A program made the translations under genes and the position numbers. From Vairimorpha necatrix (taxonomy: Eukaryota): 64,000 bases of DNA. Positions 1 through 37,063 of the stretch are shown piece after piece (the first letter of the stretch is position 1; each line of letters opens with the position of its first letter). The DNA lies in assembly GCA_036630325.1 (NCBI GenBank), contig CP142736.1, forward strand, positions 682,001 to 746,000, given 5' to 3'. The notes below the pieces were generated by a model, which searched no databases, was not told the origin of the DNA, and saw only the letters and a list, made by a program, of their open reading frames with translations.

Positions 1-1571
1 TATAAAAGATCTTTGCAATCATTATTTCATATATAAAGGTCGCTTATTTTTTTATTTAATATCGGTAAAAAAAGTACTATGTATTTTTAATTCTGAGCCC
101 AATAACTTATATTTTTGTCTCTAATGAATAAAACGAAGGTAAATCAAGTTTAAACCAAACAAACTTAAAAAAGATCCATCAGTACATTAATTAATAATAG
201 ATAAAAGGGGTTTATCGAATATTCGAACCGCATGTTTTTTTAATTTGGTTTTATGGAAATTAATTGCAATTTTTAGTTCTAAAATAGTATTTTTTATTGA
301 AAACATTTGGAACTTTCATCTTAGATAGTATTTTTGTTTTTTTCATTTGCCATTCCTAACAAATTCCTATCTTTCCATTTGTGGCAAAAAAGGATTATCT
401 ATGTAAGAAAATATCGCTTTGTTTTTGACAATTCTATTATATAATTTTTGATAATTTAAATATAATTTGAGATTTGTTTTTTTAAAATATTAGATGTCCT
501 ACCTCCCGTCTAATGTATATAGCTCATAAAGGGATTTTCGCTTTCATGATTTGGTAGTTACATAGAAGTTATTCAAATGTATATTATGATATTGTCATTC
601 ATTCATTTTAATTTTTATGTTCTCATAAGATATAGATCTGCAACAAAAACAAAATTTTATTAGCTGCAAACTTTTCATATTAAATTAGAGATGAATTTCA
701 GTCTATAAGTAACATTTATTTATAAAACTTTACTCTAAAAGAGAAATACTTACTCTTTAGTATATAGTTTTTGTATTAGAATTTGATATAATCAAAACAG
801 TACTATAAAAATGACGAAAAAGCATACTCGGGGTTTTTTATATGAAATAATATCTAATATCCTATTTTTTTGTGAATTCTAAATAATTATCAGTAATATG
901 GTTTGTGTACATCGAGAATCTGTCTATATTTTGTATATATATTATAGAGGCATCTAAACATCTCTTCTCTAGTAACGATGGCTTTGTAAATTAGCTAAAT
1001 AGAAATATTATTTTCAACTACTATTCTTATTTCAGGAAAACAATATTTTATTTAACTATTATATATATTTAAAAATTCCTAAAAGCCTGAAAGCTGCACG
1101 AATAAACAAACTTGTTTCTACTATATCCAAGGATAATGCTATAAAAGATATGGATGTTTTCATCATCATTAGTATCCTTAGTTGCCTGAAATTAGTTCAA
1201 TTATTGCTTAATTTAATATTTATAAAGATATTAGTTAGGTCGAGATCGATTTCTATATCAGACGTTACGGACTACTAGGTTGTGTAAAAATGAATCAAGA
1301 GTTGTTATAGAGTCAAGTATCATGGATTTATAGAAAAGTTGTTTTTGCGAATATTATTTTGTTTATCTCTATAATGATGTATTTATCCAGAAATTATATG
1401 GGAAAACCTTTGAAATATAGTAATTTTTTATAAAAATAAAAAAAAACTGATGCTTGCAATAGTTAACAAGAAATTTTTACGAATATAAGCTATAAGTTAA
1501 ATCTAAAACTTTTGTTACGAATTACAAGTACGAAGTTCTTTTTCATGCTTAAATAGATTACAAATTATACC

Positions 1572-1933
1572 TGTCACACGACATCCTTCCTGTACCTATT
1601 ACAAGCCCAGTGAGACTCTAATATTTGAACCCCGGGCTGTCATATCTCAATTACAGCCGGGTCATGGGCGTAAACAAATACGTCTCCGTCAACAAACAAA
1701 TGACGAATAAGAAAATGTCTATTCTATTGAATATGGCCAGAATATGGAAAGCTGTACAAGAGACCAGCTTCCCCTCCAATAAATGATATGCTTGACGTTT
1801 ATTATAAATAAAACATAAAAGGATGAATTTCTAGCCCTTCACCGAGTCATGAGAGATTATAAAACCAATAAATAGTTTACTAAAAACTCATATATAGACA
1901 CACCGAGCAGCCAGGGAGGCAGCCAGTGTCACA
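1572..1933 (+). repeat. 5' LTR of element 1 (362 bp)
   Basis: Near-identical to 4146-4507, with about 3 mismatches seen. Confidence 0.95.
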
Positions 1934-1992
1934 ATGGCGACAATGCGAATGCCAAAGATAATTTAGAGAATATTATCAAAAAACTAGCAGGA

Positions 1993-4195
1993 ATGCTTAC
2001 AACTGAAAAATACTGCAAATTTAAGGGAACTAGAGGAGAAAACCCAAGAGATTTTATCCAGCAATTTACAGAGTTAGAAGGTGAGAAAACACCGGAACAA
2101 ATCTATAAAATTATAAAAACAAAACTAGAATTTAAAGCCCTCGCATGGTTCGAGGCAAAGGAAGGTCACGAAATACACGATTATGAAAGCTTCATAAAAG
2201 AGTTTGAGGAGGAATATCTGCCGGTATCGGAACCCGAAGATAATGAAAATATGTTTTTTGAACTAATATTCAAAGGCCCAAAATTTCAGGACATCATAAC
2301 TTACGTATACGAGCTAATGAAACGTTCAGAACGAAAGGAAAAGAAACTAATTTACGCAAGAAGGAAGATTAAGGAATACGTCCAGAATGACAACTATCTT
2401 TTTAGATAAACTTGAAGATAGTGAATCCTGGAATGATTTATTGTGGTTCTGCAAGAGATACGAACAGAAGATAAACCTACAAATAAAAAACAAAATTAAC
2501 GGAATTAACCTTAATAATAACAGACGAGAATCCACAAACTCGGAAAAAAGTAACAAAAAAAAGGAGGATAGAGTAATAAAGATAGCGACCTAATAAAACA
2601 TATTGACGATATTAGACCAAGAATAAGGTTGGAAAGCGGATCTATAAATATAAACACACTTTTAGATACAGGAGCGATTGACTCCATAATCAGAAAGGAT
2701 ATGGCTGAGAAATTAAAACTAAAGATAATTTCAGTAAACTCTACAATCAAGGGAATAAGTGGGGAAATGAAAATATATGGACAAACGACCCTATACATCA
2801 AAAAAAGAAAGACATAAAATCTATAAAATGTCAAGTGCTAGAAAACGTCGAAGAGGAACTGATCCTTGGATTCAACGAAATAAATGAATCTGGCCTTTCA
2901 AAATATATAATCAGAACAGGATTGAAAAATAATAACTTAGACAAATAAAAAATAGTCTTAGTTTTAAAACTAGTAGATGAACAACAAGAAAAAACACCAG
3001 AAGTTAATATAGAAGATTTGAATTTAGATAAAACTGTTATTAAAGAACATATCGATGAGTTACGACACATGGTAAACAAATACAAATCCATATTTCTAGA
3101 AAGTAAACAAAGAATACATTATATTTACAACATGCAATTGAACTTATTCACTGGCCAGATAAAATAACATGTGTGAAATACAAAAGATCACCGAAAGAAC
3201 ATGAGTTCATAAAAAAGGAAGAAATAAATTTTTAGAGTGTGGGCTTATTGAAGAAAGTAATAGCAATTTCATTTCACCAGTAGTAATAGTAAAGAAAGAA
3301 GGGAAAAGGCCAAGGTTTTGCATTGATTACCGCAAATTAAATAAATTAACAGGTAAAAATGGATTATCCAATCCTAAGAATCGATTAAACCCTAGATACA
3401 CTATCTAGAGCACAGTACTACACCACGTTAGACATGAAGAGTGGTTACCACCAAGTATATCTAAGAGATGGTGATAAAGAGAAATCGGCCTTTTACACAA
3501 GAGAAGGCATCTTTCAATTAAAACGAATGCCGCATGGATAAACGCACCATTTACTTTCCAGAAAATTATGAATAGGCTATTCAAAGAAATACCACACAAA
3601 TTTGTAGTAATCTATCTTGACGACGTTTTAATCTATTCAAAAACCAAAGAAGAACACCTTTTACATCTAGACAAGGCATTACGGATTATAAAAGACATTG
3701 GTTTCAATCTTAAACATAAAAAAATGCAATATCTTCAAAACCAAAGTAGAATTTATAGGCTACGAGATAACGAAGGGCGAAATGATAATACCCATGAAAC
3801 AGAAAACCAAAGCTTTAGAATTTGCAGAGCTGAAAACAAAGAAAGACGTTAGAGCATGGATGGGATTTACATCCTTTTCCAACCGATTTATAAAAAATTA
3901 TGCGGCCAAAATGGTTCCGTTGTACGAAAGCATTAAAGGAAAAAGAAAAAAATCAGTAATTAAAAAAATAAGGAAATTAAATATTAAACGCGAAGAAAAT
4001 GTTAGACCTGATAAAATATTGGGAGGAGGTGGATTGTACAAGAAATATTCACTAGATGAGAAAGAATATAAAGTGAATTGGAAGGATATCATGTGGATTA
4101 TAGAATCAGATCCAGCAGAGTGGATCTTTCGAAAGGAGGGGAGTGTGTCACACGACATCCTTCCTGTACCTATTACAAGCCCAGTGAGACTCTAA
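1993..4195 (+). pseudogene. Disrupted gag-pol: gag, aspartic protease and RT; RNase H and most of the integrase are missing
   Basis: Gag-like FKGTRGENPRDFIQQF, protease LLDTGAIDS, RT RFCIDYRKLN and IYLDDVLIYS. Broken by several stops and frameshifts. Confidence 0.9.
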
Positions 4196-4677: not shown

Positions 4678-7600
4678 TGTCGAATGCTCCTTTATTTACG
4701 AATTGCATGGGGGTAAAAATATATAATATTTATAGAAGGATACGACACCTCTCCCCTAAATTGAAGTATCTGCTTTAACTCGTGTTTTGTTAAGCCTGTA
4801 TACTTTTCTATTCTTTTTTTACCACATAGGCATCGGGTAAAATTATTTCTGTGATCACGTATCCATCTTCCCAATTGCACTTGAACTTCTGGCTTTTGGT
4901 TTCACGATATATTAAAACTTTATCGCTTACGTTTAGCTTTTTCGCTACCTCTTCTTTCCCTTTCACGATTGCTTTTTTGTACTTTTCGAAGTTTTCATCG
5001 CGCTTACTCTTCGTTTCCTCCGCTGAGAATGTCACTTCTTCCTTGTCTAGCGCTTTGTCTACAGACAGCATCGGCAATTTATTCTTCCTTAAAATGAACG
5101 GCGATGTTGTTTATGCTCCGATTATAAACAGGTTGAGGCATCTTGTGGCTTCTGGAAGCTTGTTCTTCCAGCTTACCCTTCCGAAATCTGTAATTTTATT
5201 TAGTATCTTCATTGACGTCTGATTCGCTCTTTCTACTGCGCCTACAGTTTCGTGATGTTCTGGTTTACTGTATTGCCAGTCAATACCGTTCTTTTCGGCC
5301 AGGTCTTTGATGTCAGAATTTATAAATTCAGGCCCGTTGTCAGTCAAGATTCTTTCTGGAATGCCGTGTTTCTCGATAATCAATTGCTGGATTAATCCCA
5401 TTATTGTCGGCCCTGTTTTATAGTTAATAACAGCTGTCTCGACCCATTTAGAGTAGTGGTCAATAGCAATGAATATGAAGCTGTTTTGACCCGAAGTGTC
5501 GCATATGCGTCCTATGAGATCTACCACCCATATTTTGTATGGCCTTTCTGATCGTATAACTTTGTTTTTTGTGTTTCGTAATGGGTATCCCGATTTCAAC
5601 CACGTTTTACACTTTTCTACGCGTTCCTTGATGTCCTTATGCATTCCTGCCCATTTGTACCTCTGAGAAATCATGAAGCTCATCGTACTAGCGCTAGCAT
5701 GTCCAACGTATAGATGGTAGGATTCTAAGATCTTCTGTCTGTCTTCATCGCTTGGTCCTGTAGCTTCGATGATATTTATATCTTTCTCTGTCGGGTTTTG
5801 TCTGCTTAACCCGTCTGCTCCATTAACCTCTCCTTTTATGTAGGTTGATTGAAATGCATACTCCTGCAACTTCATTGCCCACCTCAGCAATCTACTGGTA
5901 GGGTTCTTAGCTTCCCATAGATAAGTCAGCGCTTTGTAGTCCGTCTTCAGTATGAACTCTCTACCCAGGAGGTAGTGTCTATAGTTCTCGATGCCTTTTA
6001 CAACGGCCCAAAGTTCTTTGTCTGTTGTAGAGTAGTTCTTATGGGCTTTCTTTAAACTTTTGCTGAATGCACTTACGAAGTGCTCCTTCCCATCATCTCC
6101 AATCTGTGAGAGGATCGCGCCTATTCCCTGCTCTGACGCATCCGTAGTCAGTATAAACGGTTTCCTGAGATTAATCTTGTATCTTATGTTCTCTTCTGTG
6201 AGAAGTCTCTTTAGATCTTCGAATGCCCGTTTCTCCTTTTTGCTGAGAGAAATACTCTTAACACTTTGCTTTGACTCTCCTTTAAACAGTTCGTAGAGAG
6301 GGGCTGCTATCGCTGATAAGTTACGGATGAACTCCCTACAGTAATTTATGAGCCCATGAAACGACCGTTTTTGAGCAATATTTACGGCTCATTATACTCG
6401 TTTATGGGTTTGACCTTCTCTGTGTCCGGTTTGATCGTCTTGTTTGTGACTATATTTCCTAGAATTTTAATTTCTTCTTTGAAGAAGTGACACTTCTTCC
6501 TGTTAAGTGCGATTCCTGCTGCCTTAAGCTTACGTAATACGATTTCCAAGTGTTCACGGTGTTCCTGGTGATTTTTAGAATAGATAATAATGTCATCCAG
6601 GTATGGTATGACGAATTTTCTGTTTTCTTTCACAAAGATCTTATCCATAGTTCTCTGGAAAGTAGCAGGAGCGATACATAGCCCAAACGGCATCCTGTTA
6701 AATTCATAATGTCTTCCTCTCTAGCTGAATGCTGTCTTCTCCTTGTCTACTTCTTCAAGGGCTACCTGATAATATCCCGACGTAGCATCTAATGTCGAAA
6801 AGATAGTAGCGTCAGCTAGATCGTCGAGAATTATATCAATTCGTGGGAGGGGGCATTTATCTTTGACTGTTATCTTGTTGAGCTCTCTGTAATCTATACA
6901 GAGCCTGATCGACCCATCAGGTTTCGTTACCGGAGCAACTCTACTGTTCCAGGGGCTTCTACTATTTTTTATTACGCCCAACTGCAAGTTTTTCTTGATC
7001 TGTTGTGTGATTTACTCTTCGAAGTGCAGAGGAATCTTTCCGTTTTTCTGGTAAATTGCCTTCGCTACTGTTGTCTCGATTTGATGTTTCCCCATGTTGC
7101 AAAGTGTAAGCTCTAAAATTTCAGTTTTGAACATGTCATGGTATTTCTCTTCGATTGAGATGTAATTGACTTTGTTAATCAGTGAGCCTTTCTTGACTGT
7201 ATTGGCGAATTTTCTGATCAGTTGTTCCAGTAATATGGGGTTCGTTCGTATAGCGTCAACTCCTAAGATTATGTAGTCCGGTGTCCATTCTGTGACGCAA
7301 GGGCTGAAAGTAATTAAAGTGTTTTCCGTCCTAAAATTGATATTTAGACATCTTCCTGTAAACTCCAATGGTGTCCCTGATGCTGCTCGTATGATCGTTG
7401 AAGATCTGGTAAATCTGATATTTGTCCCTTCGAGGACTCTTGTGGGTATCAGGGAGACATCAGCTCCGGTATCAATTAATGCTCGATGTCGTTTACGATT
7501 GAATTCTACGTTTATGTAGCAAGGGTTAGTGAAACAGCTGTTGATCTTGTAGTTTTCTATGGTGTATGGCATATTTCCCTTCTTCGATGGTGCGACCTTC

Positions 7601-8218
7601 AAAGTCCTGTTATCTAGTGTCTCGTCCGTATTAATCGTGTTACTTTTCATAGGGAATGCTATCCAAGAAACTTCCTCTGTGCGCCTCAGGAATTCACTCC
7701 AATCTTGGCATTGTCTAGCAAAATCATAAAGAATTGATTTGAGGACTGAAGGAGACTTCTTGATTACTATGGGGCTGACTGCTTTGTACTCCATTGTTTG
7801 TTGCTCTATAAGGGAGTTTCCTTTCCTGCAGAAGTCTATGAAAGCCTCTAGGTTGCCAAATTGTTGCGGTTTAAAAACCCGTCTAGAGTGGCCAGAGTTT
7901 TCTGTGAACTGTAAAATCTCGATTTTAGACTCTTAGTAACCTCTGCCAGATCAAGTTCGGACACCCGTTCAAATGCCATTGCTATCCATGAGAGGGCTGG
8001 CCCCGTAGACCCAGGCAGATAAGTCTGGCGGTCTGATCTTCTGTCAGTCCAAAAACCCTCGCCGTGAACGTTGTGTCACGCAACCATGTATTTATATCCT
8101 CTTCCTTCTTTCCACTGAAGCAGCCAACAGTTTTTATCGCTGTCGCCATGTCGAATGTTCCTTTATTTACGAATTGCATGGGGGTGAAAATATATAATAT
8201 TTATAGAAGGATACGACA
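4678..8218 (-). mobile_element. Ty3/gypsy LTR retrotransposon with 70-bp LTRs (element 2)
   Basis: 70-bp direct repeats at 4678-4747 and 8149-8218 (TGT...ACA, 2 mismatches). TSD ATTAT at 4673-4677 and 8219-8223. On the minus strand the PBS is TGGCGACA (8148-8141) and the PPT is AGGGGAGAGG (4757-4748). Confidence 0.95.
4808..8179 (-). pseudogene. Fragmented gag-pol with domain order gag-PR-RT-RNaseH-IN
   Basis: ALIDTGADVS (protease), CIDYRELN and PYLDDIIIYS (RT), TTDASEQGIGA (RNase H), integrase core VDLIG...IDHYSKW...TDNGPEF...VERAN. Confidence 0.92.
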
Positions 8219-9073
8219 ATTATAGTTTCTTTTTGAATAGGTTTTTCCAATTATAAACAAAATTATATTTTATTAAAATCATTTTAAATGAACGCGTCTA
8301 GAAAAACAGTTTCTCTAATATATAACAAAAGTACTATATGTTCTAACAAAAATATCTTATAGGCTTGTTGAAAAATAAGATAAAGTCCAAAATTACTTTA
8401 CAACCGGAATACCAATATTAGTAGAATAAAATATACAATAAATATTAATGTCTATTAAAGATGATTTGTCAAAAAATACAAATACAACCGATTTATATTA
8501 CATTTAAATTTATATACGATCCAAGAAGAGTTAGAAATATCAAAAAAGGTACATAGTATCTTATGTGATTAGTTCTTGGTTTTAAGTCAATAGAACATTG
8601 TTATTTCATTTTTTAATTGGAGTTAATTCCGATTTAAAAAAAAATCAACTAAGTTGAATAGATTTCAATTTATGAGGCATCATGGTCATTGTTCTTGTCG
8701 AAATTGATGCCTTCTATTCTTAGGCAGTACACAATACAGCCCCAAATTAACTTTATGATGTTTTATAAAGGTAAATTTTTTTTAAATTCACAAATTTGTC
8801 CTATTTATTTCAGTTAGTGCTCTAAATAGATGTTAAATCTTTTGATATATTTCTTCATAAATTTTCTTATATAATCAGGATGTAAATTAATAAGTAAGAT
8901 TTTAATTTTGATATATTTTCTTAAACTAAATTATTCGTTTCAAAAAAACTATATCCGCGCCCATTACTATGTGGTTTCGATATTATAATCGCCCTTGGGA
9001 AATGTCATAATATTTAATAAGAGATTTGAGTTCAAATTTTTAAAATATGTCCTAATCCGGGTAGTTATTAATC

Positions 9074-9100
<27 letters not shown>
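9074..9100. repeat. (TA)n microsatellite
   Basis: About 13 perfect TA units. Confidence 0.9.
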
Positions 9101-9104
<4 letters not shown>

Positions 9105-9979
9105 ACCTGGTTTTCGGGACGAACACTATTATCAGGACATTATTCATATTCTAAACGAGAACAAAGTTTAGAACATATTTTTTGGCCTTTGACATATATA
9201 TACATATAAAAAATAATACTAACACAAACCTTTAAGAAATACATAATATAATGGTCAAATGAAATTTTTGGTGTTAACATCATAAACGCATAATTAGTTT
9301 AAGCAATTGTATCAATTTATCCTGTTACAAGTCAGCAATTAAGTAGGTGCGACGTTTAGGAATTCAAATTTCATCATGCGAATATGGAAAAAGGTTAAAA
9401 ATATAAAACAAGAATGAGGTTTTACTGATGTTATGTTGGAAATTGATATTTAAAGTCGTTTCCTAAATTTGATAAAATTTGTCATTAACGGCCGAAAAAA
9501 ATACACATAATTGTATTGTGAACTGTGCATTCACATACTTTCAAAAACGCTGTATTATTGACCATATATCATCATATAAAATTATAAATTACTAATTAAA
9601 AATAACTTTAATATTTGTTTAATCTGTACTAAATGCTTGAAAGAAAAATATCAGAGACCAATAGATTTGATATTTTACCTTTTCTGTTAAAATTATCAAT
9701 GCCTGCATTGTTTTGTGTTATTATTTCACTAATATTTCTATGTATTTTTTGGATTGTTTGTGACGATTGGATTCAACTTAGTGATATAATACGATTAATT
9801 TTTTGTAATGTTAATGCGAAACAAAGCCAATCTATAATTTTTATGTAAAACTGTACTGTTTTAGAGACAGATTTTTGAATAAATTGATTTACAACGATCT
9901 CATATTTCCGGTTTAAAAGTTTTAGACCTTTAGGTATCACTTGATGTTATATGTTAGTGTATTGGTGGAAGATATTCGA

Positions 9980-12513
9980 TGTTATATATTCTTATATTTA
10001 TGAACCCCATTATGGAGAATAAATAAATGGTGGGATACAAATCGTGAGTTAACAAGTGTTGGCTGTGGTCAAGAGGCCAGAAAACTACTGCAAGAATATA
10101 AGATTATTATGTATGAGATCAAAGTTATTGAGTGTAGAGCAATGAAGATTTGAAGAAAATTATTTTTGAAAAGGGAAGTTTGGAGCTAAAATTTTTATGG
10201 TTATGAATATAAGTTTAGAGAATCATCATGACATGATAGGAATACGACTAAAAGAGATTGTAAAAGATTATGAAGATGGAGAAGAGAGATTTAGAATGAT
10301 TGAAGAGGTCACAAAGAAATTGACAAAAGAAATATATACAGAGGAGATAGAGCGTAGGAAACGGTATTTGAGGACAATGAGATGTTTTTATTGTGAAAGG
10401 TTAGGACATAAAAGTAATATATTTTATAATAGATACAGAGAGGAGAGAAATAGACAAGAATGTGAGAAGATATATCAAGAGGACAGTAGCAGCAGCGACG
10501 GAAAATATTACAGGAATACGTGGGCCGGTAAAAGGCAAAAGAAACAGATAGAAGTTGGGCCAGGTATACTATGGAAACGAACTGGAATTGTTAAAGACCT
10601 TAATAAGAGAAGTTATGACACGACAAATTGTTTTTAGAGGCAATTAGACTGTTAGAAGAGAATAACATGAGATTAAACTCAAAGAAGATACATTATCGTC
10701 AATCTGAAGTTAAATTATTAGGAGTAACATTGAATGAGCAGGATATGATGCCATCCGAGATAAAAAAGAATGAAGCATTAGAATTTCCGAAGTTGCAAAA
10801 TGTAACCGACGTAAGAAGATTTTTAGGATTAAGTGGTTGGTTCAGAGGATTTATAAAGAACTACGCAGAGAAAACGATGCACATGACAGATTGCTTAAGA
10901 GGGAAAAACAAAAGTTGGAATTGGACTGAGGAGTTGGATATTGAATTTAGAAATATGAAAAAAGTGCTTAAGAATTTAGGAAAATTGAGGATTGTTAATT
11001 ACGAGAAAGAATTTTTATTAAGAACGGATGCGAGTAAAATTGGTATGGGAGCTGTACTTTTGCAGAAAAATGAAAAAGAGGAATGGGTGCCGGTACAATG
11101 GGCATCAAAGAAATTTACTCCGACTGAAACTAGATACGGAATTAGCGAGAAAGAGATGTATGCCGTATATTGGGGCATAAAGAAGTTTGAGTATGAATTG
11201 AGAGGAAGAAAGTTTAAGGTTGAAACTGATCATAAGGCTTTAGCAGAAATAAGAAGAAAGCCATGTTTTAATAATAATAGGATTAACAGGTGGATAGAGA
11301 TGATTTAAGAGTTTGATTTTGAAATCGAGTACAGGCAACCCGATCAGATGGTTGTTGCTGATGCATTGAGCAGAATTCATGAGGTAAATGAACCGAAGAG
11401 AGAAATGATTAGACAAAGAACAGAGAAACAGATAGCGGGAAAATGGTTAAAGCATGTTGAGAAAGTCGGAGAAAAGGAGTACTGGAATTTTGATTCTGGT
11501 CGTAGAGCGAAAATACCTGCAGTAGGTGATAGGTTAGAGTAAATGAAGAGGTACCACGAAGAACAGGCCCACAGAGGACTAGGAAGTGTCTATTATGCTA
11601 TGAAGTTTGACTATTATTGGCCAGGAATTAAGGAAGATATAAAGATGATGATAAAAAAATGTGAAAAATGCCAAAAATACAATAGGAAAAAATCAGGAGG
11701 ATGTGATTTTATTGCGACAAGTAGATACCTAGAAAAGATGGCAATATATTTAATCGATTATAGAGAATTGGGTAAATTTGTCTTGTTCGTCATTGATTAC
11801 TATACGAGAGTCGCATGGGGTTGCGTGTTGAAAGATAAGCGTGCTAGCTCGATAACTGGATTTATAGAAAATTTGAGTAGAAATGGTAAAAGACCAGAAG
11901 AAATCATATCGGACAATGGAAGATAATTTGCAAATGAGGAATTTCATGAGTTATACAGAAAGTTGGATATAACTCACAGAAAGACCAGTATTGAATCACA
12001 TAAAAGCAATGGGAGAGTTGAAAGAGTTATTGTAACGTTGAGAGAATCTGTTTTGAAAATGAATCCCAAAAATAGCTTTGAAGAAAGAGTTATGAAGGCC
12101 TTTGAGATTTATAATAATAGTTACCTTGAAGGTCTAAGATGCACACCATTTGAGGCAGTTAAAGATAATACGGGCAATGTAATGCTAAGAAATGGACCAG
12201 AAGGAGATTATAGTAGTCGATTTAAAAAGAGATATACAGACAAGTTCGTCGAGAGTGCGAGTTGCGAAGAGTGAAAATTTAAAGGGTCTAATAAGTATGA
12301 AAAAGGTAGGTTTTTGGATATTGGGACGATTAAGATTGTGTGTCCAATGGATTCTTATGTAGTAAAATTAATGAATGGACGATTAGTTAAGAAGAGGCAC
12401 TATGACTTAAAAGATCTGCTTAGGGTTGATGATGACGTAGGAGACTAACCGTCTTGGAGGGGGGATGTTATATATTCTTATATTTTTGAACCCCATTATG
12501 GAGAACAAATACA
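9980..12513 (+). mobile_element. Ty3/gypsy LTR retrotransposon with 48-bp LTRs, internally deleted (element 3)
   Basis: 48-bp direct repeats at 9980-10027 and 12466-12513 (3 mismatches). TSD TTCGA at 9975-9979 and 12514-12518. PBS TGGTGGGATAC at 10028 and PPT GGAGGGGGGA at 12456-12465. Confidence 0.92.
10197..12448 (+). pseudogene. Disrupted gag (CCHC knuckle), RT C-terminal half, RNase H and integrase
   Basis: CFYCERLGH knuckle, RRFLGLSGWFRGFI, LRTDASKIGMGAVL, VVADALSR, H...H...CEKC zinc finger, IISDNG, SNGRVER. Protease and the RT N-terminus are deleted. Confidence 0.9.
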
Positions 12514-12937
12514 TTCGATAACATTTTTTGTAATTACAAAATCTGAACCATTATGAAAAGTAAAAATATTAATTTTGGTCAAATTTCCGCTCTAATTTTA
12601 TCAGATGAATGTAGGACATTTTGCACTAAAAAAAATTTCTGTTTTTTATTTATAAAAAATGTGAATCTGCATGCAGTAACTTATAGATTAAATTTAGTTT
12701 GCCTATAATTGTTCAATACAAAAACATCACATAACATCATAAAACAATGCCGACTCATTGCACCAAAACTATTTGACTTTTTACAATGGAAGATTTTTGT
12801 TCCAAAAATATTATTAAATGTATAAGAACTGAAAAACATTATATAATATTTATTTCTTAAAAAAAAATAATAGTCTTATGAAAATTGTAGAATAAATAAA
12901 ATATATACAAATAGAAAAATCACTTGTAAGAATTTAT

Positions 12938-13552
12938 TTATAACGCGATTAGTACTAATGAAAATCCAATGACAGAAATAGACACCAATACTTTGTCTGA
13001 ATTGCTACTTACAGATTCTTCATCAACGTTTTTATCGTCGTTTTTTACTTTCGTATTTTTTTTTTTCGTTTGCGGGCTAGAAGCTGCATTCTTTTGTTGA
13101 GAGGTTGGTTTATACTCATAAAATGTAGACCTTTTGTCGGTCTGTATTCCTTCTATAAACCTAGGTTTGGAATTATAAACAGCTTTGATTGTTTTTTCGT
13201 CATTAGCCATTTCATTGTATTCTTGTATATTATAATTAAATTTTTCTGGTTTTAACTGAAAATCATTCGGTGTTGGGGCATATGCAAGAATGTATTTGTT
13301 ACCTTCAGTCTTGACAATAAGAGCTCCACTATCAAGTAATTCTCCGGCGTTTTCATGTACAGCAATTTTCTTAGGCATACTCCATTCATTATCATTTGGC
13401 CCTTTTGATTTTATTTCTATTCCTCCTCGACCATCAGTCTTTATAGAATAGGCCACATTGTCTTTTAGATTGACCAATTCTTCAACGTGTATGTCTGGCT
13501 GTTCTTTAAGACTAACATTGTTGAATATGAATACTAGAAGTTGCAGGTCCAT
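12938..13552 (-). CDS. Putative secreted or GPI-anchored surface protein, 204 aa
   Basis: Short hydrophobic N-terminus, Ser-rich spacer and hydrophobic C-terminal tail VLVSISVIGFSLVLIAL. GGGGG motif just upstream of the ATG. Confidence 0.8.
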   Translation of the reverse strand: MDLQLLVFIFNNVSLKEQPDIHVEELVNLKDNVAYSIKTDGRGGIEIKSKGPNDNEWSMPKKIAVHENAGELLDSGALIVKTEGNKYILAYAPTPNDFQLKPEKFNYNIQEYNEMANDEKTIKAVYNSKPRFIEGIQTDKRSTFYEYKPTSQQKNAASSPQTKKKNTKVKNDDKNVDEESVSSNSDKVLVSISVIGFSLVLIAL

Positions 13553-15899
13553 TTTTATTTACCCCCATAAAAATTTTATTTATATTTTACATGTTTATTT
13601 ACACTACAAGAAAACACTGTGAATAAACAAACTTAAACAATTGAATAAACAAATTTCTTAAAACAAACATACGAGTATCAAAAAAATATTTTGATAACTT
13701 TGATTGCTTTTTACTTATAAGAAAAAATTAGAATGTTCAAAGTCGATTTTCCATGTCATATAAATCCTATTGTTGGAATGAAACCATAGGTTTATTTATT
13801 ATAAAATATTTAAAGAACAACATGTCAAATGTCTCAGAAAGGCCAATGCCGGATTTGACATGTGTTACACTTCCTACACTTATAATTATAAAGTTTTTTT
13901 GATTATCAAATCTATTAAAAGTAATTCGTATAGCCAACAAAGATAAATGTGTAAATCCAATTATAGTTTGTAGAAAATAGACATGTTGTAATATGGAAAA
14001 AAGTAATCAATAATTCTTTCGATTAGCAAGGTTGCATAGGGAGTTAAAATTAAATAAAACCTAAGATAGAGCATCAAAAATACTTTTTTCAGGTATTAAC
14101 TGGACATCATAAATTATAAAAAGCAATTTAATCATCTATACCATATGTATTTGAAATAAAAAGCAGAAAATAACTTATAATAACAAAAACTAATGTGATC
14201 GGATAACCCCACGTTTTTGCAAAACATAAGTTAGCATATTAATCAATATATATATATATATAGAGTTCGTATTTTCATTAACAGACCTATGATGAGTAAA
14301 TACTCAATGAACGTTCATTGAGCATACAGCACGAAATATAGATCATATATCTGTAATCAAAATATTATACTGAAATTTCAACATGAATCAAAAAAATTTA
14401 AATCCGCCTACGGCTAAATTCTACGACATCATGTAATGAATATATTACTTCCATCTATTTGTTGCAAACCAATAATTCATACTATAAGGGTCAAAAAAAT
14501 ATAATGTCATTTATATTCGGTTTGCTTTTTACAAATAACATTATAATGTCTAAATTTAATTCTTACGTTGTGATTCTATCGATACAAAATTTTTTAATTT
14601 GGCGGGAAACGATTTTTTTGCGTTAAAATTTATACACATAAAAATAATGAATTCTCTAGTTAAAATACTGTAATAGAGACGAGTTTGACATATATAATAT
14701 AATTTGAAGAGATTTTTATTATTATAACCTATATTTGCTTTTTTATTTTACTCTTTGAAAAAATCACATTAAAAAAAAAATTTATTTGTTGGTGTTTCAT
14801 ATTGTCATAATCAAACATATAAGCCCAAATTTTTCTATACTAAATAAATTTCCGAAAGGATTTGTTAACATCCGAATTGGCGGAACTTCAATACATTTCT
14901 TAAAAACTGTAAATAGCAAGATCGGCGAGTAATATAAACATATGAAAGAGTAAAAATCATTATAGTATTACATTCTTTATAAAGAAATAGAACTTCTATA
15001 AAAAAATTGATAAAAAAGTACATAAAGTATCTTTAGAAATCTTGTAAAAATAATATATACTCTAATATTTTTGAATAAAAAACCTAACTGTAAATCTCAT
15101 AAAGATGCTTAGAGAATTATCCAACAAATGTGGTCGAATATGGAAGTTTGATTATATGAAAAGACAAAAAGATGTGGTTAACATGTATAACATTTAACAT
15201 GTTATAATCTACTTTCACGAAGTAAAAAATATATACGTGACTAAGTATAGAAGATCTTATTTTAATTGATCAGAAATAAAGTCGAGACAAAAATATCTAA
15301 ATATTTTAAAATACCCCGATACCAGGTATTTCTAATTTGACAAGAAGAAAAAAGAAAGGACATTGGCGAAGCTGAAATTTCAATCGGGATAGACTTACCA
15401 TAGTTGTGAATGAAGAGTTAAGAAATATTATTCTTTTACTTTAGGAAATAAATATGATCGTGTAATAGTTTTAGAGAAGACACAGGATGAAAAAAGGTCA
15501 AGTTACTACTAAAGAACGATAAAAAAACTAAAAATTAATTTTTTTTTCGAAGCATACATCCAATATTTTTCGCTACAAAGGCGTTGGTGTATCTCCATTT
15601 GAAACAAAGACTAGAATTACGATCACTAAAGATGCTAGAGAGGAATACGTGGGAAGACTCTAAGTGCACTGGCCGAGAATATATTTGCTAAAGAAGTGGT
15701 ATGTGTATGAGAATAGTAGTATATCAAAAGATTTTATAAGCATTTATCATATTAGTATTTGAAATTGAAATTCAAAATATATAAGCGCTCCTAAATATAA
15801 GTGCTATCAACATCTAACATCTAGGAAAAATGCACAATTATATGAATTATTTAAATCTTTTTCAAAATTAAAAAAAATTTACAAATGTATTAAAATAGT

Positions 15900-19095: not shown

Positions 19096-19625
19096 GATTA
19101 AAGTATATTTAGAGATTCTACAATGTTGGATTTTAATATCGAATCAATATTTAATTTTGTAGTATCTTTCTTGTTTAATTTAATTTAAATTCTAACTCGT
19201 ATAATTATATGTACACAGATCTATAGCTATCATTTCTTTGTTTTAATTCTTTTAAAAAATTAAAAAATAATGCGAAATAAACAATAAACATTCATTGTGT
19301 GTTGTATGGTACAAAAATAACATACATATAGTTACAACAATGGAGATTCATCAGGAATTTATTCTTAAAATATCATAGACGTACAGAACTCAATAATTAA
19401 CTAAAATATCTGTTGTAAACTAGCACAATAATTTCTTTAAATAGAATTAAGGATAAATACCGACAATATCAACTTGGTGGCAGGCATCTTTTTTCATAAC
19501 ATCACTTATTTTACTTTTGTTATCATGTTAAAAAACATGACTTGTCATATTTGTCCTGTTATATTTATATCTACATTATAACCTTTTGTATTAATAAATT
19601 TGTTTCATTGTTTATGTTTGTGTGC

Positions 19626-19745
19626 GATATTGTTTAAGTTCCATTGTAAAATTGTTTAAGTTTGTTTGCAATATTGTTTGAGTTTGTTTGTAATATTGTA
19701 AAATTGATTGAGTTTATATGTAAAATTGTTTAAGTTTGTTGATTA
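19626..19745 (+). promoter_or_regulatory. Tandem imperfect repeats (about 22 bp) of the ATTGTTTAAGTTTGTT type upstream of the EnP1-like gene
   Basis: About 5 copies lie 60-180 bp upstream of ATG 19804. The regulatory role is inferred. Confidence 0.5.
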
Positions 19746-19803
19746 AAAAGTTATTTAAACAAACAAATAAAACTATAAATAAAGAAAAAAATTTAACCCC
19801 AAT

Positions 19804-29881: not shown

Positions 29882-29908
29882 ATGTTTTTTAACTAGGTGC
29901 AGATCTCT

Positions 29909-31582
29909 ATGAAGGGTAAAGTAAGAGAAAGCAGGAGCGAGCTCAGTAGAGCAAAAAGTGACCACTTTGGTGGTCCAAACAACAATTTAGATACAGAAAT
30001 GTATTTAAAACAACAAACTAAGCATGTATATGCTAGTAAAAGTTTCCCAAGTGTTACTTTTAAAAATGATGGAGAAATGAAATATTTTCTCAAGAAAATC
30101 AAAATTCTTTCAAAAAGAATTAATAAAAATGATATTTTTGACACATCAAAAAAAGATAACAATAAAGATCTTATTGATCTTAAAAGATACATATCTAGCA
30201 CTACTGAATTAGTATTGATTCAGCAGACATATCTGGAGCTCTTTCATGAAAAGCTAGAAAAACAAAACATCAAACTAAAAAATTTGATTAAAAATAATGT
30301 GATGGATGACAGTGATCAAATTACTGATTCATCAAAAAATAAATTTGAGATAATGATTGAGAATCACTCAAAAGAATGTGTAGAACAAAAGGATAATAAC
30401 TCCGATGTTCCAAATGATACCAGTAGCGAAACCCTTCAGTTAGCTACTGGAAACAATGATATTTCTAAATTAGAAATCATAAATGAAGATGTTTTAATTA
30501 ATGTCAAAAATATCGTGTCTGCTGTCAAAGTAGAAGAAGAAGATCGATTGTCAGAAGATGGCAAAAGAAAATGTATAGGTGTCTCAAATGCGTCTACAAA
30601 TATTATAATTAACAAGAATAGTAAAACACAAGATGGTAAGCTAGATATAGCCTCCATTAACAAAAAAGCAGTAGTTAGACATCTGTCAACTATCTCTGCT
30701 ATTATAGCTGGTAAAAGAAAAGCTCCTAAGAATGAAGTCAAACTTTACCATACAAATGAAGACGGATGGACATCTGTCAAACACACATTCAAGCCTAAAG
30801 TCCAGATAGACTTGAAGAAAAACAGAAGGGGTAAAACCACGTATAAATCCAACTTTAATAGATTTAAATCACTTAAAGTGGAATCCGCTGGCAATGTAAA
30901 AGTGCCCAAAAATTCTATTCATGCAGCTTTACATGAGAAAAACAAATTATCTACTAAAGACTATAAAAAAAAAAGATTACAATATCATAAAATAAATTTT
31001 ACTCAAAAAATGAAAAATAGAAACAATGAGAAATGTCAACAAAAAAGAAGTCCAGTTTTTCCAGTGAAAAACTGGGCCAAAGAGCTAACGGAAGAAGCTC
31101 TTATGAAAATTATAAAGGATGGTAGAATTATTTCCAAATGTAAGTTTAGGCTAGCTCTTGCTTCTGGACTCGGATTACAAGGGAAACCTCAATCTAGAGA
31201 CGCATGGGCAGCCCTAACGGATGTTGAAAATAAAGATATACCACTTATAAAACAATTTAAAGATTCGGAAGTAGTACTTTTGATGATTAGAGAAAACGTG
31301 TGCCCTAAGGTACTAGGCAAAATTAAAGAAAAGTTCGTAGGTTCTAATATCTGTGAGGAAGTTAATTTCTTCATCGACTTTTTGTCTTTAACAAAAACAA
31401 CTGTTCTAGGAGAACTACAAAGACTCTCTGGAACGCATAAAAACTTTGTACCACTTGTTAAAGCATGTAGGTACATAACTAAAGAATTAAATAAAGAAAA
31501 GCCAAACCATGGATATTTCATTTATTTAGAAAATATGATGGGTGAGCCTGCCCGAGAATCTAAGGACTTTAATAATGAATAA
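29909..31582 (+). CDS. LINE ORF1 (outer copy), basic, no recognisable domain
   Basis: Intact ORF of about 557 aa starting MKGK, paralogous to 31685-33379. Its stop overlaps the ORF2 ATG. Confidence 0.85.
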   Translation: MKGKVRESRSELSRAKSDHFGGPNNNLDTEMYLKQQTKHVYASKSFPSVTFKNDGEMKYFLKKIKILSKRINKNDIFDTSKKDNNKDLIDLKRYISSTTELVLIQQTYLELFHEKLEKQNIKLKNLIKNNVMDDSDQITDSSKNKFEIMIENHSKECVEQKDNNSDVPNDTSSETLQLATGNNDISKLEIINEDVLINVKNIVSAVKVEEEDRLSEDGKRKCIGVSNASTNIIINKNSKTQDGKLDIASINKKAVVRHLSTISAIIAGKRKAPKNEVKLYHTNEDGWTSVKHTFKPKVQIDLKKNRRGKTTYKSNFNRFKSLKVESAGNVKVPKNSIHAALHEKNKLSTKDYKKKRLQYHKINFTQKMKNRNNEKCQQKRSPVFPVKNWAKELTEEALMKIIKDGRIISKCKFRLALASGLGLQGKPQSRDAWAALTDVENKDIPLIKQFKDSEVVLLMIRENVCPKVLGKIKEKFVGSNICEEVNFFIDFLSLTKTTVLGELQRLSGTHKNFVPLVKACRYITKELNKEKPNHGYFIYLENMMGEPARESKDFNNE

Positions 31583-31684
31583 AGTATCCTTGTTAAAGTT
31601 CTGTTTTTATAGGAAATTATTTTCCTATAACAAAAGTGATATTTTTAAATCTCTAAATAAAAAAACTCATAATCCAATTGGATA

Positions 31685-33379
31685 ATGAAGGGTAAAGCGC
31701 AACAAACCAGGAGCAAGCTCAGTAGAGCAAAAAGTGACCACTTTGGTGGTCCAAACAACAATTTAGATACAGAAATGTATTTAAAACAACAAACTAAGCA
31801 TGTATATGCTAATAAAAGTTTCCCAAGTGTTACTTTCAAAAATGATGGAGAAATGAAATATTTTCTCAAGAAAATCAAAATTCTTTCAGAAAGAATTAAT
31901 AAAAACGATATTTTTGACACGTCAAAAAAAGAAAATAACAAAGATCTTCTTGATATTAAAAGATACATATCTAGCACTACTGAATTAGTATTGATTCAGC
32001 AGACATATTTGGAGCTCTTCCATGATAAGCTAGAAAAACAAAATATCAAATTAAAAAATTTGAAAAAAAATAATCTGATGGATGACAGTAATCAAATTAC
32101 AGAATCAACAAAAAATAAAATTGAGATGATGATAGAGAATCACTCAAAAGAATGTGTAGAACAAAAGGATAATAACTCCGATGTTCCAAATGATACCAGT
32201 AGCGAAACCCTTCAGTTAGCTACTGGAAACAATGATATTTCTAAATTAGAAATCATCAATGAAGATGTTTTAATTAATGTCAAAAATCTCCCATCTGCTG
32301 TCATAAATCTCGACACTGCTGTCAAAGTAGAAGAACAAGATAAATTGTCAGAAGATGGCAAAAGAAAATGTATAGATGTTTCAAAGGCATCTACAGATAT
32401 TATAATTAATAAAAATATTAAACCAAAAGATGGTAAGCTAGATATAGCTTCCATCAACAAAAAAGCAGTAGTTAGACATCTGTCAACTATCTCTGCTATT
32501 ATAGCTGGTAAAAGAAAAGCTCCTAAGAATGGAGTCAAGCTTTTCCATATAAACGAAGACGGATGGACATCTGTCAAACACACATTCAAGCCTAAAGTCC
32601 AGATAGACTTGAAGAAAAACAGAAGTGGTAAAACCACAGATAAAACCAACTTTAATAGATTTAAATCACTTAAAGTAGAAACTAGTGGCAATGTAAAAGT
32701 GCCTAAAAAGATTAATCATGAAGCTGTAAAGAGAAAAGATATCATTCCTAAAAGAGATCATGAAAAAAGAAGATTACTAAATCAGAAAATAAATTTTACA
32801 AAAAAAACGAAGGACAGAAAAAATGAGAAATGTCAACAAAAAAGAAGGCCAGTTTTACCAAAGAAAAACTGGGCCAAAGAGCTAACTGAAGAAGCTCTTA
32901 TGAAAATTATAAAGGATGGTAGAATTATTTCCAAATGTAAGTTTAGGCTAGCTCTTGCTTCTGGACTCGGATTGAAAGGGAAACCTCAATCTAGAGACGC
33001 TTGGGCAGCCTTAGCTGATGTGGAAAATAAAGATATACCACTTATAAAACAATTTAAAGACTCGGAAGTAGTACTTCTGATGATTAGAGAACACGTGTGC
33101 CAAAAGGTACTAAGCAAGATTAAAGAAAAGTTCGGAGGTTCTAATATCTGCGATGAAGTTAATTTCTTCATCGACTTTTTGTCTTTAACAAAAACAACTG
33201 TTCTAGGAGAGCTGCAAAGACTCTCTGGAACGCATAAAAATTTTGTACCGCTTGTAAAAGCATGTTGGTACATAACTAAAGAATTAAATAAAGAAAAGCC
33301 AAACCATGGTTCCTTCATTTATTTAGAAAATATGATGGGTGAGCCTGCCCGAGAATCTAAGGACTTTAACAATGAATAA
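31685..33379 (+). CDS. LINE ORF1 (inner copy), 564 aa
   Basis: Intact ORF, a diverged paralog of 29909-31582. Confidence 0.88.
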   Translation: MKGKAQQTRSKLSRAKSDHFGGPNNNLDTEMYLKQQTKHVYANKSFPSVTFKNDGEMKYFLKKIKILSERINKNDIFDTSKKENNKDLLDIKRYISSTTELVLIQQTYLELFHDKLEKQNIKLKNLKKNNLMDDSNQITESTKNKIEMMIENHSKECVEQKDNNSDVPNDTSSETLQLATGNNDISKLEIINEDVLINVKNLPSAVINLDTAVKVEEQDKLSEDGKRKCIDVSKASTDIIINKNIKPKDGKLDIASINKKAVVRHLSTISAIIAGKRKAPKNGVKLFHINEDGWTSVKHTFKPKVQIDLKKNRSGKTTDKTNFNRFKSLKVETSGNVKVPKKINHEAVKRKDIIPKRDHEKRRLLNQKINFTKKTKDRKNEKCQQKRRPVLPKKNWAKELTEEALMKIIKDGRIISKCKFRLALASGLGLKGKPQSRDAWAALADVENKDIPLIKQFKDSEVVLLMIREHVCQKVLSKIKEKFGGSNICDEVNFFIDFLSLTKTTVLGELQRLSGTHKNFVPLVKACWYITKELNKEKPNHGSFIYLENMMGEPARESKDFNNE

Positions 33380-36300
33380 AGTATCTTTGTTAAAGTCCTG
33401 TTATTATAGGAAATTATTTTCCTATAACAAGAGTGATATTTTCAAATCTCTAAATAAAAAAACGCATAATCCAATTGGATTTACTCAGATTAAAAATACT
33501 TTCCAAACGACAACGAGATTGAATAGTCTCAAATATTTTTCTATTAGAAAGAATATGTGGTGGAAGAAAGTACAAGAACAATATTGTATTGTCAAGATAC
33601 AAAGAATTCCTTATGGAGTGAAAGATCTCCTCAAAGACTTATGTAAGAAGAACTCTCTTTTGGAGAATTCCATTATTACAGCAAGAAAGTATAGACGAAG
33701 AGACACGTCTTTTACAAAAATAATAGTTGAAAAACTATACGCAAATTTATTGATTAAGACAGTTAAAGCTAAAGGCTTTAAAGTTTTAAATGATAATAGA
33801 AAAAAACTAGAGAAATCTAGTAAAGTAAATAAAAAGACCAAAGAGAACATAAAACTCTTAAGTCTAAACATTAACCATCTCTCTAACAAGAGAGAAGAAC
33901 TCGAGTGGCTTCTAAAGAAGGAGGAACCAGAAATTATGTGTTTACAGGAAACTTGGAGACAATCTACAAGACCTTTAAAACTTGAAAAATACACTACAGT
34001 TGAAACACTTAGTAGTGGAAAAAATAAACCAGGATTAATAACTCTGGTTAGAAATAATGGAGCGATCAGATGTTCCAAAAAAGGAACCGACTCAAACATT
34101 CTGCAAACTGTAGTTGAGTTTAGTTCAGCAGGCAAATGGATTAAGTATTTAGTCTTAAATGTCTACATACCACAAAACAAGGATCTCAAAAGGGAGACCT
34201 TGGCCAGATTATTTTCTCTTTTAGAAAAAGAGAATTTCAGAAATAACTATAGTGAGATCATAGTGATGGGAGATATGAATATGCAGAGTTCTAGTCTCAA
34301 GAAAAAACTAAAGGTAGTTGGTTTGCCAGTTACAATAAAATATAACAGCAACGATGGTACAAGGATTCTCAAAGATGGTAAAAGATCTAAGAGAAAAATT
34401 GATACCATCTTTCGACTAAAAAGTAATGATAATGAGAAGATCATTATATCCAAGTCTTGGGTATTAAGTGATCACTTAGTGCTCAAAAGAAATATTAAAC
34501 TTACTGTTGATAAGACCTCAGATCAACTAGTTTATGATAAGAAGATGCTGGAAAATCCAAAAGTGATTAAAAAGCTTAAAAAGAAGTTGTGTAATCAACA
34601 ATTAAACATGAATAATCTTCCTGAGATTATTCAAAAAGTTTGTACATCTTTGAAGATTTACAAAAAGAGAGGAGGCCATACTGGACTTACAATGAGATGG
34701 AGATATTTAAAAGTCTTCAAAGAAAAACGTCTAGCAGCAAGAGCTGTTATGAAAAATTATAATGAAATCAACTCAATTAGATTCGAATATCTCAAAAAGA
34801 GAGTAGACGAAACTAAAAAGTTGATTCGCAAAGATAGATCGAAACTTTGGGCTTTAAGAGGAATAAAGCTCTTTAAAAGTAACAGATCCCGAGAATTCTG
34901 GCAATGGCTGAAAAATAGAAGTGTCTCCATTCGTTTGGATCAAGTGGCTCTAATTGACCACAATAAGATTCTTCAGACTTGCCGAGAAAGAAGCTAGAAA
35001 TAGCGAATAAATTTTACGCTGATTTGGCGTCAGAGAATGATATAGATGTCAATGTCTATGATAAAGTAGATCTTGTTGATCTTCCCCCAGAGATAACAGA
35101 TGAAGAATTTCTATCCGCACTGAAGAAATGTGGAAATAACAAAGCAGCCGGTCCTGATGAGATTCCAACCGAGCTATACAAACACTTACTGACTAGAGCA
35201 GTAGAAGATAAATTCTTTAAATTCATGCTACATGAATTTAATAAATATATTTGTGGAAATAGTCCTCCTGAATACTGGAGCATGGCAAACATGATTTGCC
35301 TTCACAAAAAAGGAGATGAGACAGATCTGAATAATTATAGGGGAATCTCCTTAATTAACACAATTAGTAAGATCTATCTCAAGATAATAAATGACAGGTT
35401 AACTCAATTTGTCGAAGAACAAGATATACTCTCTAGATACCAAGCAGGATTCCGAGCAGGTGAAGAGTGTATGAATCAGATTACATCTCTACTAGAAATA
35501 GTGAGAAGAAGAGAATTCAGAGGCCTGAACACAATAATGTGTTTCATTGACTTTGAAAAAGCTTATGATAATGTAAGTCATGACTTATTATTTGAGAAGC
35601 TTACAAAACTTAATATCCCATTGTATTTAATCAATACAATAAAGGGTATTTATAAATATACCACCATGCGTGTGAAAATTGGTGGTGACACGTCAAGTGG
35701 CTATAGCTACAGAAAAGGAGTGAGACAAGGGTGCCCTTGTTCTCCAATGCTGTTCAATATATTCATCAATGATATTTTTGACGGCATAGAAGGAGTTTTG
35801 ATCCCAAGATCAAATACGAGAGTTCCGGGACTGATGTTCGCAGATGATATTGTTGTCTTCGGAAACAACATTGATGATCTTAATAATAAGATCAATAGAA
35901 TTTCTAATTGGGCGGTTAATAACAGAATGAGGATTAACTGCACAAAAAGCGGAATATTAGAATGGGCTGCTCATTCTAAAATACAAGAATTCCGAAGTTT
36001 GTATTCTCTCAGTACAGACTTTGGTGTGATTGAGGAAGTCACTGAATACAGATATCTAGGTGTCTTAATTAAAAGAAACACGCTAGAAGAACACTTGGTC
36101 AAAGACGCAGCAATGCGTGGCAAGAAAGCCTTGGACGCCTTGATGCCCAAGTTGATGAATAATAGCATCAACCTTTACTTCAAGGCGATCTTAATCAAAT
36201 GTGTACTAGTACCCACACTAATGTATGGTAGTGAACTGTGGGGAATGTCAAGTACAAGAGCAGGTAAGATTAACAGGATCTTAAGAAAATCTATCAGAAT

Positions 36301-37063
36301 GATATTCAAAAGAGTATTAGTTCCACTAGATAGAGTAATGGACGAGTTCAGTATCGAACGAATTCATATACAAGCAGCTTTAAGTAGATTTAGAGCATAC
36401 AACAAGTGGAAACACAATAAGACAATCATATCGGATATAATCTCAATCAATCCGAAAGAAAGAAAAACTACCTGGTGTTCAAGAACACAAAGATGGTTAA
36501 AACGATTTGTCGGCAACGATTATGAATCAACTGATAGTAGATTTATCACTACAAAAATAATTGATGTACTAAGAAGTCGAAGAACTCTAAATACTTCTTT
36601 AGCTGCATCAATAGCAAACCAATATGACATAAGAAATTCACAAATAAAATATGTCATGAACAAAATAAATAATAGGAAAATTAGAACATATGCTAGATTG
36701 AGATGTAATCTAGTAAAGTAATCCTCAGCAATAGCCAATTCAAAAAGAATATCTATGAGTTATAGAAACGAATGCTTTTTGTGTGATGGACCACAAGAAA
36801 ATTTAGAACACTTTCTGCTGGAGTGCGTCTGTTTAACTGACATTAGATCATCTTTTGAAAATAAACTGCCTCTACTGACTTGTTCAAAAACAAATATCCG
36901 AGATAAAACCAAGCAACTCCTTGGTAATAAAATCGGACTAAAAAATAACCCAGATAAGATAAAAGAACTTTGTTGCACTATAGAGTTCTTAGATAGAATG
37001 GTTGTCTCTAGAAGAATTATGATTAATAACAAACTGAAGGAGATAACGAAACAAAATAATTAA
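33372..37063 (+). pseudogene. LINE ORF2 (inner copy): AP endonuclease, RT and C-terminal CCHC finger, with one frameshift and one in-frame stop
   Basis: APE motifs LNINHL, CLQETW, MGDMN, IDTIF, LSDH. RT motifs NYRGISL, FIDFEKAYD, GVRQGCPCSPMLF, FADD. Finger CFLC..ENLEHFLLEC. 1-nt deletion near 34986 and TAA at 36719-36721. Confidence 0.92.

Follow-up and report, generated by a model that had tools for sequence, protein, structure and literature searches.

Long terminal repeats of 48–49 bp in a Ty3/gypsy-derived retrotransposon family of the microsporidian Vairimorpha necatrix

Retrotransposons that carry long terminal repeats (LTRs) in general replicate by transfer RNA (tRNA) priming at a primer-binding site (PBS), two strand transfers, priming at a polypurine tract (PPT) and integration with a stagger. 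In Ty3 of Saccharomyces cerevisiae (Metaviridae), the LTRs measure approximately 340 bp, gag and pol are separate and frameshifted, the capsid has two domains, a protease is present and initiator tRNA-Met is the primer. Terminal-repeat retrotransposons in miniature (TRIMs) have short terminal repeats, a PBS, a PPT and a 5-bp target-site duplication (TSD), and are non-coding and under approximately 1 kb. Among microsporidia, the Nbr elements of Nosema bombycis are reportedly Ty3/gypsy elements with a single polyprotein. Here we describe an element bounded by 48-bp LTRs, and the family to which it belongs, from a 64,000-nucleotide stretch of the Vairimorpha necatrix genome (CP142736.1, positions 682,001–746,000, forward strand). 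This whole stretch is referred to as the window and all coordinates given are positions within it.

The family resembles Ty3 in the order of reverse transcriptase (RT), RNase H and integrase, in the presence of a CCHC knuckle, a tRNA PBS and a PPT and in a 5-bp TSD, but has 48–49 bp LTRs, one open reading frame (ORF) and no detected protease. Unlike TRIMs, the family unit is 3.14 kb in length and encodes a polyprotein of 1014 amino acids (aa). Passages of Parisot 2014 (PMC4202319) describe microsporidia-specific Ty3/gypsy groups 1–3 with a single polyprotein; the one ORF, usually starting in the 5' LTR, is as found in the intact V. necatrix copy L018, whereas the LTRs of those groups are longer. 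Table S1 of the same paper does however list, without comment, the Anncaliia algerae element retro L with a 50-bp LTR, an ORF at 32–3049 and a total length of 3127 bp, and a supplementary table of 2014 thus already holds a precedent for the sub-50-bp design. Retro L is like the window family in that its ORF starts within the LTR and, by eye, in that the first 11 LTR bases are common to both and CCC stands directly before the ATG; it differs in that AATAAA precedes the CCC and the PBS begins differently. A 45-bp LTR given in Table S1 for retro S appears doubtful, the 5' repeat extending by eye over approximately 80 bases to the PBS. In the main text of Parisot 2014, as far as its passages go, short LTRs are unmentioned and the word 'protease' has no occurrences.

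In the window, two 48-bp direct repeats were found on the forward strand at 9980–10027 (5' LTR) and 12466–12513 (3' LTR), identical at 45 of 48 positions (3 differences). Allowing for as many as three mismatches, direct repeats within 8001–15000 were at most 51 nt long, while base shuffles (n=50) reached no more than 27 nt. The perfect TTCGA duplication that had been read from the letters was found on the forward strand at 9975–9979 and 12514–12518, and the G-rich PPT GGAGGGGGGA, likewise claimed to lie directly before the 3' repeat, was found at 12456–12465 (forward strand) abutting the 3' LTR. Both ends of the insertion could be fixed independently of the repeat because at uninserted paralogous sites (seven examined) the left flank runs straight into the right, with TTCGA present once in six of them and TTTGA in one. 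Two further stretches were considered as LTR material and rejected: 9943–9974, which resembles a further LTR end with a PBS, also occurs in the empty sites and is host flank, and 8147–8197, as a third LTR copy (63%), is the LTR of a neighbouring element with 70-bp LTRs. The window from approximately 8200 to 14000 is a multicopy host segment to which the flanks of the insertion belong.

Other details of the sequence-only reading were upheld in part. The 3' LTR has the form TG...CA; the 5' LTR starts with TG and ends in AA, not in CA, and 29 of the family's 30 5' LTRs end in CA. CCCC at 10005–10008 is followed by an ATG at 10012 (10005–10014, forward strand), a host-type arrangement whose motif is described in passages of PMC2803860; in intact sisters the polyprotein frame begins at this ATG, 16 nt from the LTR end, and in the window copy the frame ends after four codons. 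The AATAAA at 10018–10023 (forward strand), by its sequence a possible polyadenylation signal, doubles as the ORF codons Asn-Lys. CCCC, ATG and AATAAA had thus been correctly noted, but in the family a restriction of AATAAA to the 5' repeat does not hold, the window 3' copy having merely lost it. The PBS (10028–10041, forward strand) stands where it was placed, starting with TGG directly after the 5' LTR, but is decayed in this copy, its match to tRNA-Pro(AGG) being limited to 3 contiguous nt; well-kept sister copies pair with the 3' end of this tRNA over 13–14 nt.

The interior of the window copy is that of a dead, internally deleted derivative. A broken, short Gag-like remnant at 10012–10617 (forward strand), with a decayed CCHC knuckle at approximately 10380–10421, was recognized by translation and by tblastn matches to residues 2–35 and 63–181 of the L018 ORF. 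It is followed by a deletion junction with a 9-nt overlap at 10618–10626 (forward strand), where approximately 625 bp have been lost and with them residues ~182–401 as numbered on the sister ORF, among them the YMDD motif of the RT active site. The remaining pol at 10619–12448 (forward strand) comprises the RT end, RNase H and integrase with zinc finger and core (Pfam PF17917, PF17919, PF17921 and PF00665), its frame interrupted by four stops at 11306, 11540, 11924 and 12272. The copy measures 2534 bp compared with approximately 3.14 kb for the family unit. Two further copies have the identical deletion, with TSD and flanks in common with the window copy at 98–99% identity; the inserted form was found approximately 45 kb away on the same contig (99.5%, L002) and on another contig (C5; 98.6%, L003). 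As the three deleted copies have the same TSD and flanks, they represent one insertion copied together with its surroundings, and spread of the deleted form as a non-autonomous element was rejected. The value lies in the family and not in the window copy itself.

Searching the genome gave at least 71 matches. The first 20 LTR bases occurred 88 times in the genome with up to two mismatches, against 7 occurrences of a reversed control, and a PPT plus TG pattern matched 138 times, against 3. TG starts and CA ends were each present in 74 of 78 distinct LTR copies, and AATAAA lay 10 nt from the LTR end in 29/30 5' and 30/38 3' LTRs. Among 33 paired elements, 5-bp TSDs were perfect in 17 and matched at four of five bases in 4 (shuffled mean 0.95, maximum 6). 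When terminal repeats were sought without constraint at the 30 best loci, repeats of 48–53 nt were obtained at 18, shorter decayed ones at 4, no pair at 8 and longer ones at none. The PBS of L018 matched tRNA-Pro(AGG) plus CCA over 14 nt, with 8 nt for the next best of the 63 host tRNA genes found. LTR pairs were identical in L018, L022, L025 and L023, and a search for longer LTRs in intact members found none. Five candidate solo LTRs lacked PBS and PPT (L110, L111, L113, L116 and L128), three of them with a perfect TSD and measuring 48, 49 and 48 bp. The ratio of 5 solo candidates to 33 paired elements would be in keeping with a repeat so short that it seldom recombines; the pattern search would miss old solos.

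These data make it nearly certain that the element structure with 48-bp LTRs is real and family-wide, and the view of the sequence-only reading that 48 bp is the genuine LTR length, and no artefact of truncation, agrees with the family loci, the empty sites, the TSDs and the solo LTRs. The degraded state of the window copy and its place in a duplicated segment present three times could instead point to the repeat being what is left of a longer LTR, or to an artefact of assembly. This explanation is extremely improbable and already refuted by the empty sites, by independent insertions each with their own TSD, by identical LTR pairs and by TSD-flanked solo LTRs, all at 48–49 bp. Several points weigh against the overall explanation of the family that is set out below. 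The first 20 LTR bases served as search pattern, so that conservation figures for that stretch are biased, and the figure of 72 of 78 LTR copies measuring 48 or 49 bp is not independent, lengths having been fitted within 44–53 nt. The TSD matched at three or fewer of five bases in 12 of the 33 paired elements, which is unexplained, and an uninterrupted ORF was present only in L018 among 31 full or near-full window-family loci scanned. Three relatives on metagenome contigs had no detectable LTR pair, and for this reason the LTR length outside the V. necatrix genome comes from the published table alone. Non-matching TSDs were seen for example in L004, L011, L012, L095 and L096, some of which have near-identical LTRs; recombination between copies, decay or wrong pairing may account for them. 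No relative of the family turned up in viral contigs. No RNA data set was listed as containing L018, which counts neither for nor against its transcription.

Short LTRs were also found in related families, sampled as the first 40 exact PPT matches listed outside the window family; the sample shares one common PPT and describes a clade rather than the whole genome. An LTR pair was present at 36 of the 40 loci, 14 of them (one decayed) in a family with 38-bp LTRs and 22 in three families with 49-bp LTRs. Perfect duplications at the LTR end were seen in 32 of the 36 elements, and uninterrupted ORFs of 1003–1035 aa in 15. Elements of the 38-bp family (L145, L152, L156, L158, L160, L163–L165, L172, L179, L180 and L182–L184) are 3.05–3.08 kb in length, with the ATG just 10 nt before the LTR end and a PBS matching tRNA-Arg(TCG) over 13 nt; the 49-bp families have a tRNA-Pro PBS. 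One of the latter (L149, L159, L161, L162, L167, L173, L174 and L181) has an LTR that ends in TA, not CA, and contains no AATAAA, with perfect TSDs in 7 of 8 copies and ORFs of more than 1000 aa in 5 of 8. The neighbouring element within the window, at 4678–8218 on the minus strand (3541 bp), is a second gypsy element with 70-bp LTRs (2 differences) and an ATAAT TSD. An in-frame ATG follows CCCCC without a gap, AATAAA is present, the PBS is tRNA-Ser-like and an aspartic protease is encoded; stops break the window copy, and 8 further copies at 95–97% are present in the genome.

The single ORF of L018 encodes 1014 aa, starting at LTR base 34 and reading through the LTR end and PBS. Pfam matches were obtained to CCHC, followed by RT (281–439), RNase H (503–633) and integrase (704–854), which is the Ty3/gypsy order with integrase last, and the best PDB profile matches were Ty3 Gag-Pol (E 3.7e-114) and Ty3 RT. 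The closest named proteins were from Vairimorpha, Nosema, Enteropsectra and Pseudoloma, and among the top 47 matches those that bear a name were all microsporidian except one labelled as a Clostridium metagenome-assembled genome. Half (15/30) of a set of aligned proteins, consisting of L018 and 29 near-full-length sequences from the top 47 among 115 matches, begin M-x(3-7)-M[AG].

No aspartic-protease Pfam match was obtained for L018 at E values up to 1, and for the 30 aligned proteins none of the 25 Pfam families listed, out of 39, was an aspartic-protease family. As a positive control, the neighbouring element with 70-bp LTRs scored PF13975 at 1.6e-07. The linker between CCHC and RT measures 51–129 aa in the 30 proteins, and the predicted model of L018 has helices at 20–124, a low-confidence stretch at 145–197 and no beta-rich domain between CCHC and RT. 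In the model approximately 125 helical residues precede the CCHC, and these gave no capsid match in Pfam or PDB. With the neighbour's protease as tblastn query none of 40 matched, and pairwise comparison with it gave a best E of 0.47, both being weak tests. A few signals speak against the loss of the protease: a weak Peptidase_A17 score in three of the 30 homologs (best E 0.047), a D[ST]G motif in the linker of two of the 30 and, for residues 15–225, the presence of clusters with aspartic-protease families in four of the ten best atlas rows, at scores of 0.80–0.83 where the lead level is 0.9. Gag-like clusters were also among the atlas look-alikes, with scores of only 0.78–0.83 on the same scale. 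When the whole model was used for a fold search, every match in the ranks listed was to RT, and the search is silent on Gag. Of the features of Metaviridae, the family has TG...CA repeats, a TSD, a tRNA PBS, a PPT and RT, RNase H and integrase with a Ty3-type RT; because an aspartic protease was not found, it is a Ty3/gypsy-derived variant and not a canonical member.

Comparison with host genes indicates that the LTR resembles a host gene start. A set of 136 ORFs, from which 90 were dropped as transposable element-like and paralogues collapsed, left 37 host ORF families; 22 of these 37 have CCC in the 20 nt that lie upstream of the first ATG, compared with 7 of 186 internal ATGs. In six families of elements the ATG lies 16, 16, 16, 16, 10 and 31 nt before the LTR end with CCC 0–11 nt upstream of it, and the LTR ATG is always in frame with a second ATG formed by the last LTR base and the PBS. 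Passages of PMC2803860 describe a CCC motif, give AAUAAA approximately 20 nt before the cleavage site as a general rule and, for Encephalitozoon cuniculi, report 5' untranslated regions of less than 7 nt, blurred 3' ends, frequent transcription overrun and weak poly(A) recognition.

By analogy with this host pattern, the LTR would act as a host-style promoter in which the AT tract and CCCC set the transcription start a few bases before the LTR ATG. U3 would then comprise approximately 29–32 nt, and R plus U5 only some 16–20 nt. tRNA-Pro would prime a minus-strand strong-stop DNA of approximately 16–20 nt, which would be transferred to the identical short stretch at the 3' end; plus-strand synthesis would begin from the PPT, and integrase would join the TG...CA ends at a stagger of 5 bp. 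The RNA 3' end is probably loose, at or just past the LTR end, and a distinct U5 may barely exist; since AATAAA in the window family ends 4 nt before the LTR end, poly(A) addition probably takes place at or past that end and may leave next to nothing as U5. R regions of 16–21 nt are known in some retroviruses, and a missing U5 would be the unusual part. The polyprotein may function without cleavage or may be cleaved in trans, protease-bearing families of the same genome being one possible source of the enzyme. Taken as a whole, this mechanism of a host-style promoter LTR, a strong stop of approximately 16–20 nt and a near-absent U5 appears to us somewhat more probable than not. It is a good deal more doubtful that these elements form a self-mobile microsporidian clade of minimal design, with 38–49 bp LTRs, in effect no U5, a strong stop of 10–20 nt, a Gag with too few residues to make a normal capsid, and a single Gag-RT-RNase H-integrase protein that stays uncut and requires no protease.

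The LTR might alternatively consist of nothing but integrase ends and a short strand-transfer overlap, with the RNA supplied by host read-through and PBS and PPT alone trimming the cDNA. The overrun and weak poly(A) recognition seen in E. cuniculi (PMC2803860, in the passages cited above) would suit such a scheme, as would the shifting position of AATAAA from family to family. All six families checked nevertheless keep CCC with an in-frame ATG after it, despite different LTR sequences, and so, by eye, does A. algerae retro L; this arrangement matches the host gene-start pattern, and the scheme as a whole is unlikely. We regard as equally unlikely the classical compact U3-R-U5 of the sequence-only reading, in which both transcription start and poly(A) site fall inside the 48 bp and leave a real U5 of a few bases. 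AATAAA at LTR positions 20 and 24 in the 38-bp family and ATTAAA at 20 in one 49-bp family are in its favour, as a cleavage site some 20 nt further on might lie at the LTR end or close to it. In the window family, by contrast, only 4 nt separate AATAAA from the LTR end, where the usual spacing to the cleavage site is approximately 20 nt (PMC2803860, passages). This variation in position also counts against the promoter-like LTR that we favour: in the 38-bp family AATAAA lies upstream of the ATG, and one 49-bp family has no AATAAA and instead ATTAAA before the CCCC. In A. algerae, the 50 complete families listed in Parisot 2014 (Table S1) have a median LTR of 191 bp, with 46 at 100 bp or more and 4 below 100 bp, most elements measuring 3.6–4.3 kb. 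As the ORF starts inside the LTR in 43 of these 50, compact host signals are general among these elements, and permit a 48-bp LTR but do not explain it. The proposal that minimal host signals let the LTR shrink below 50 bp thus holds in so far as the LTR resembles a host gene start and its ATG opens the intact ORF, and is weakened in so far as the place of AATAAA varies and short signals are insufficient in A. algerae.

A further explanation, compatible with the promoter-like LTR, is that the protease-less short-LTR families are non-autonomous, being packaged and processed by protease-bearing relatives, and that the tiny LTR is a trait of a parasite of a parasite. The missing protease, the mere ~125 residues before the CCHC and the protease-bearing family with its 8 further copies in the same genome are consistent with this. 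Against it, RT, RNase H and integrase are all complete in the short-LTR families, uninterrupted ORFs of 1003–1035 aa were present in 15/36 related elements, and the protease-bearing neighbour itself has short (70 bp) LTRs. We hold non-autonomy to be a tentative possibility, less likely than its absence though ahead of the two transcription schemes above.

The short LTRs have consequences for the size of LTRs and for their detection. The families show that the LTRs of coding retrotransposons can in nature be as small as 48–49 bp, and 38 bp in a related family, and open a sharp test of the minimum length of strong-stop DNA and of strand-transfer overlap. The expectation that common LTR finders would miss such elements at default settings agrees with the settings of LTRharvest, whose defaults include a minimum LTR length of 100 and a seed of 30 (Table 1 of PMC2253517, the part relied on). 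Default LTRharvest would skip the window copy because its 48-bp LTR is below that minimum and the longest exact run common to its two LTRs, 20 nt, is below the seed; de novo scans at such settings would skip elements of this kind in microsporidia. In literature covered by title, abstract or passages, no report was found of sub-50-bp LTRs, or of a lost protease, in elements of microsporidia; papers outside that scope, such as Xu 2006 and Xiang 2010 on the Nbr elements, may already give short LTRs. Passages of PMC13174016, PMC11358816, PMC3286476 and PMC7313128 contained nothing on very short LTRs, with no occurrence of 'LTR' in those of PMC7313128.

Other features were noted in the window. A multicopy ORF of approximately 206 codons at 12938–13558 on the minus strand encodes a hydrophobic C-terminal tail, has no Pfam match and has paralogues in the empty sites. 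Two tandem broken elements resembling long interspersed nuclear elements (LINEs), with APE endonuclease, RT and zf-RVT domains, occupy 33336–41070, with a further RT fragment at 3478–3852, and upstream of the LINE-like elements two long ORFs without Pfam match lie at 29897–33379. A degenerate tandem repeat of approximately 22 bp at 19600–19740 stands just before a 472-codon ORF at 19783, and regions 43002–43697 and 53608–54246 form a diverged duplication approximately 10.6 kb apart. A host gene with an HPC2/ubinuclein (HUN) domain is present at 41583–42680 on the minus strand.

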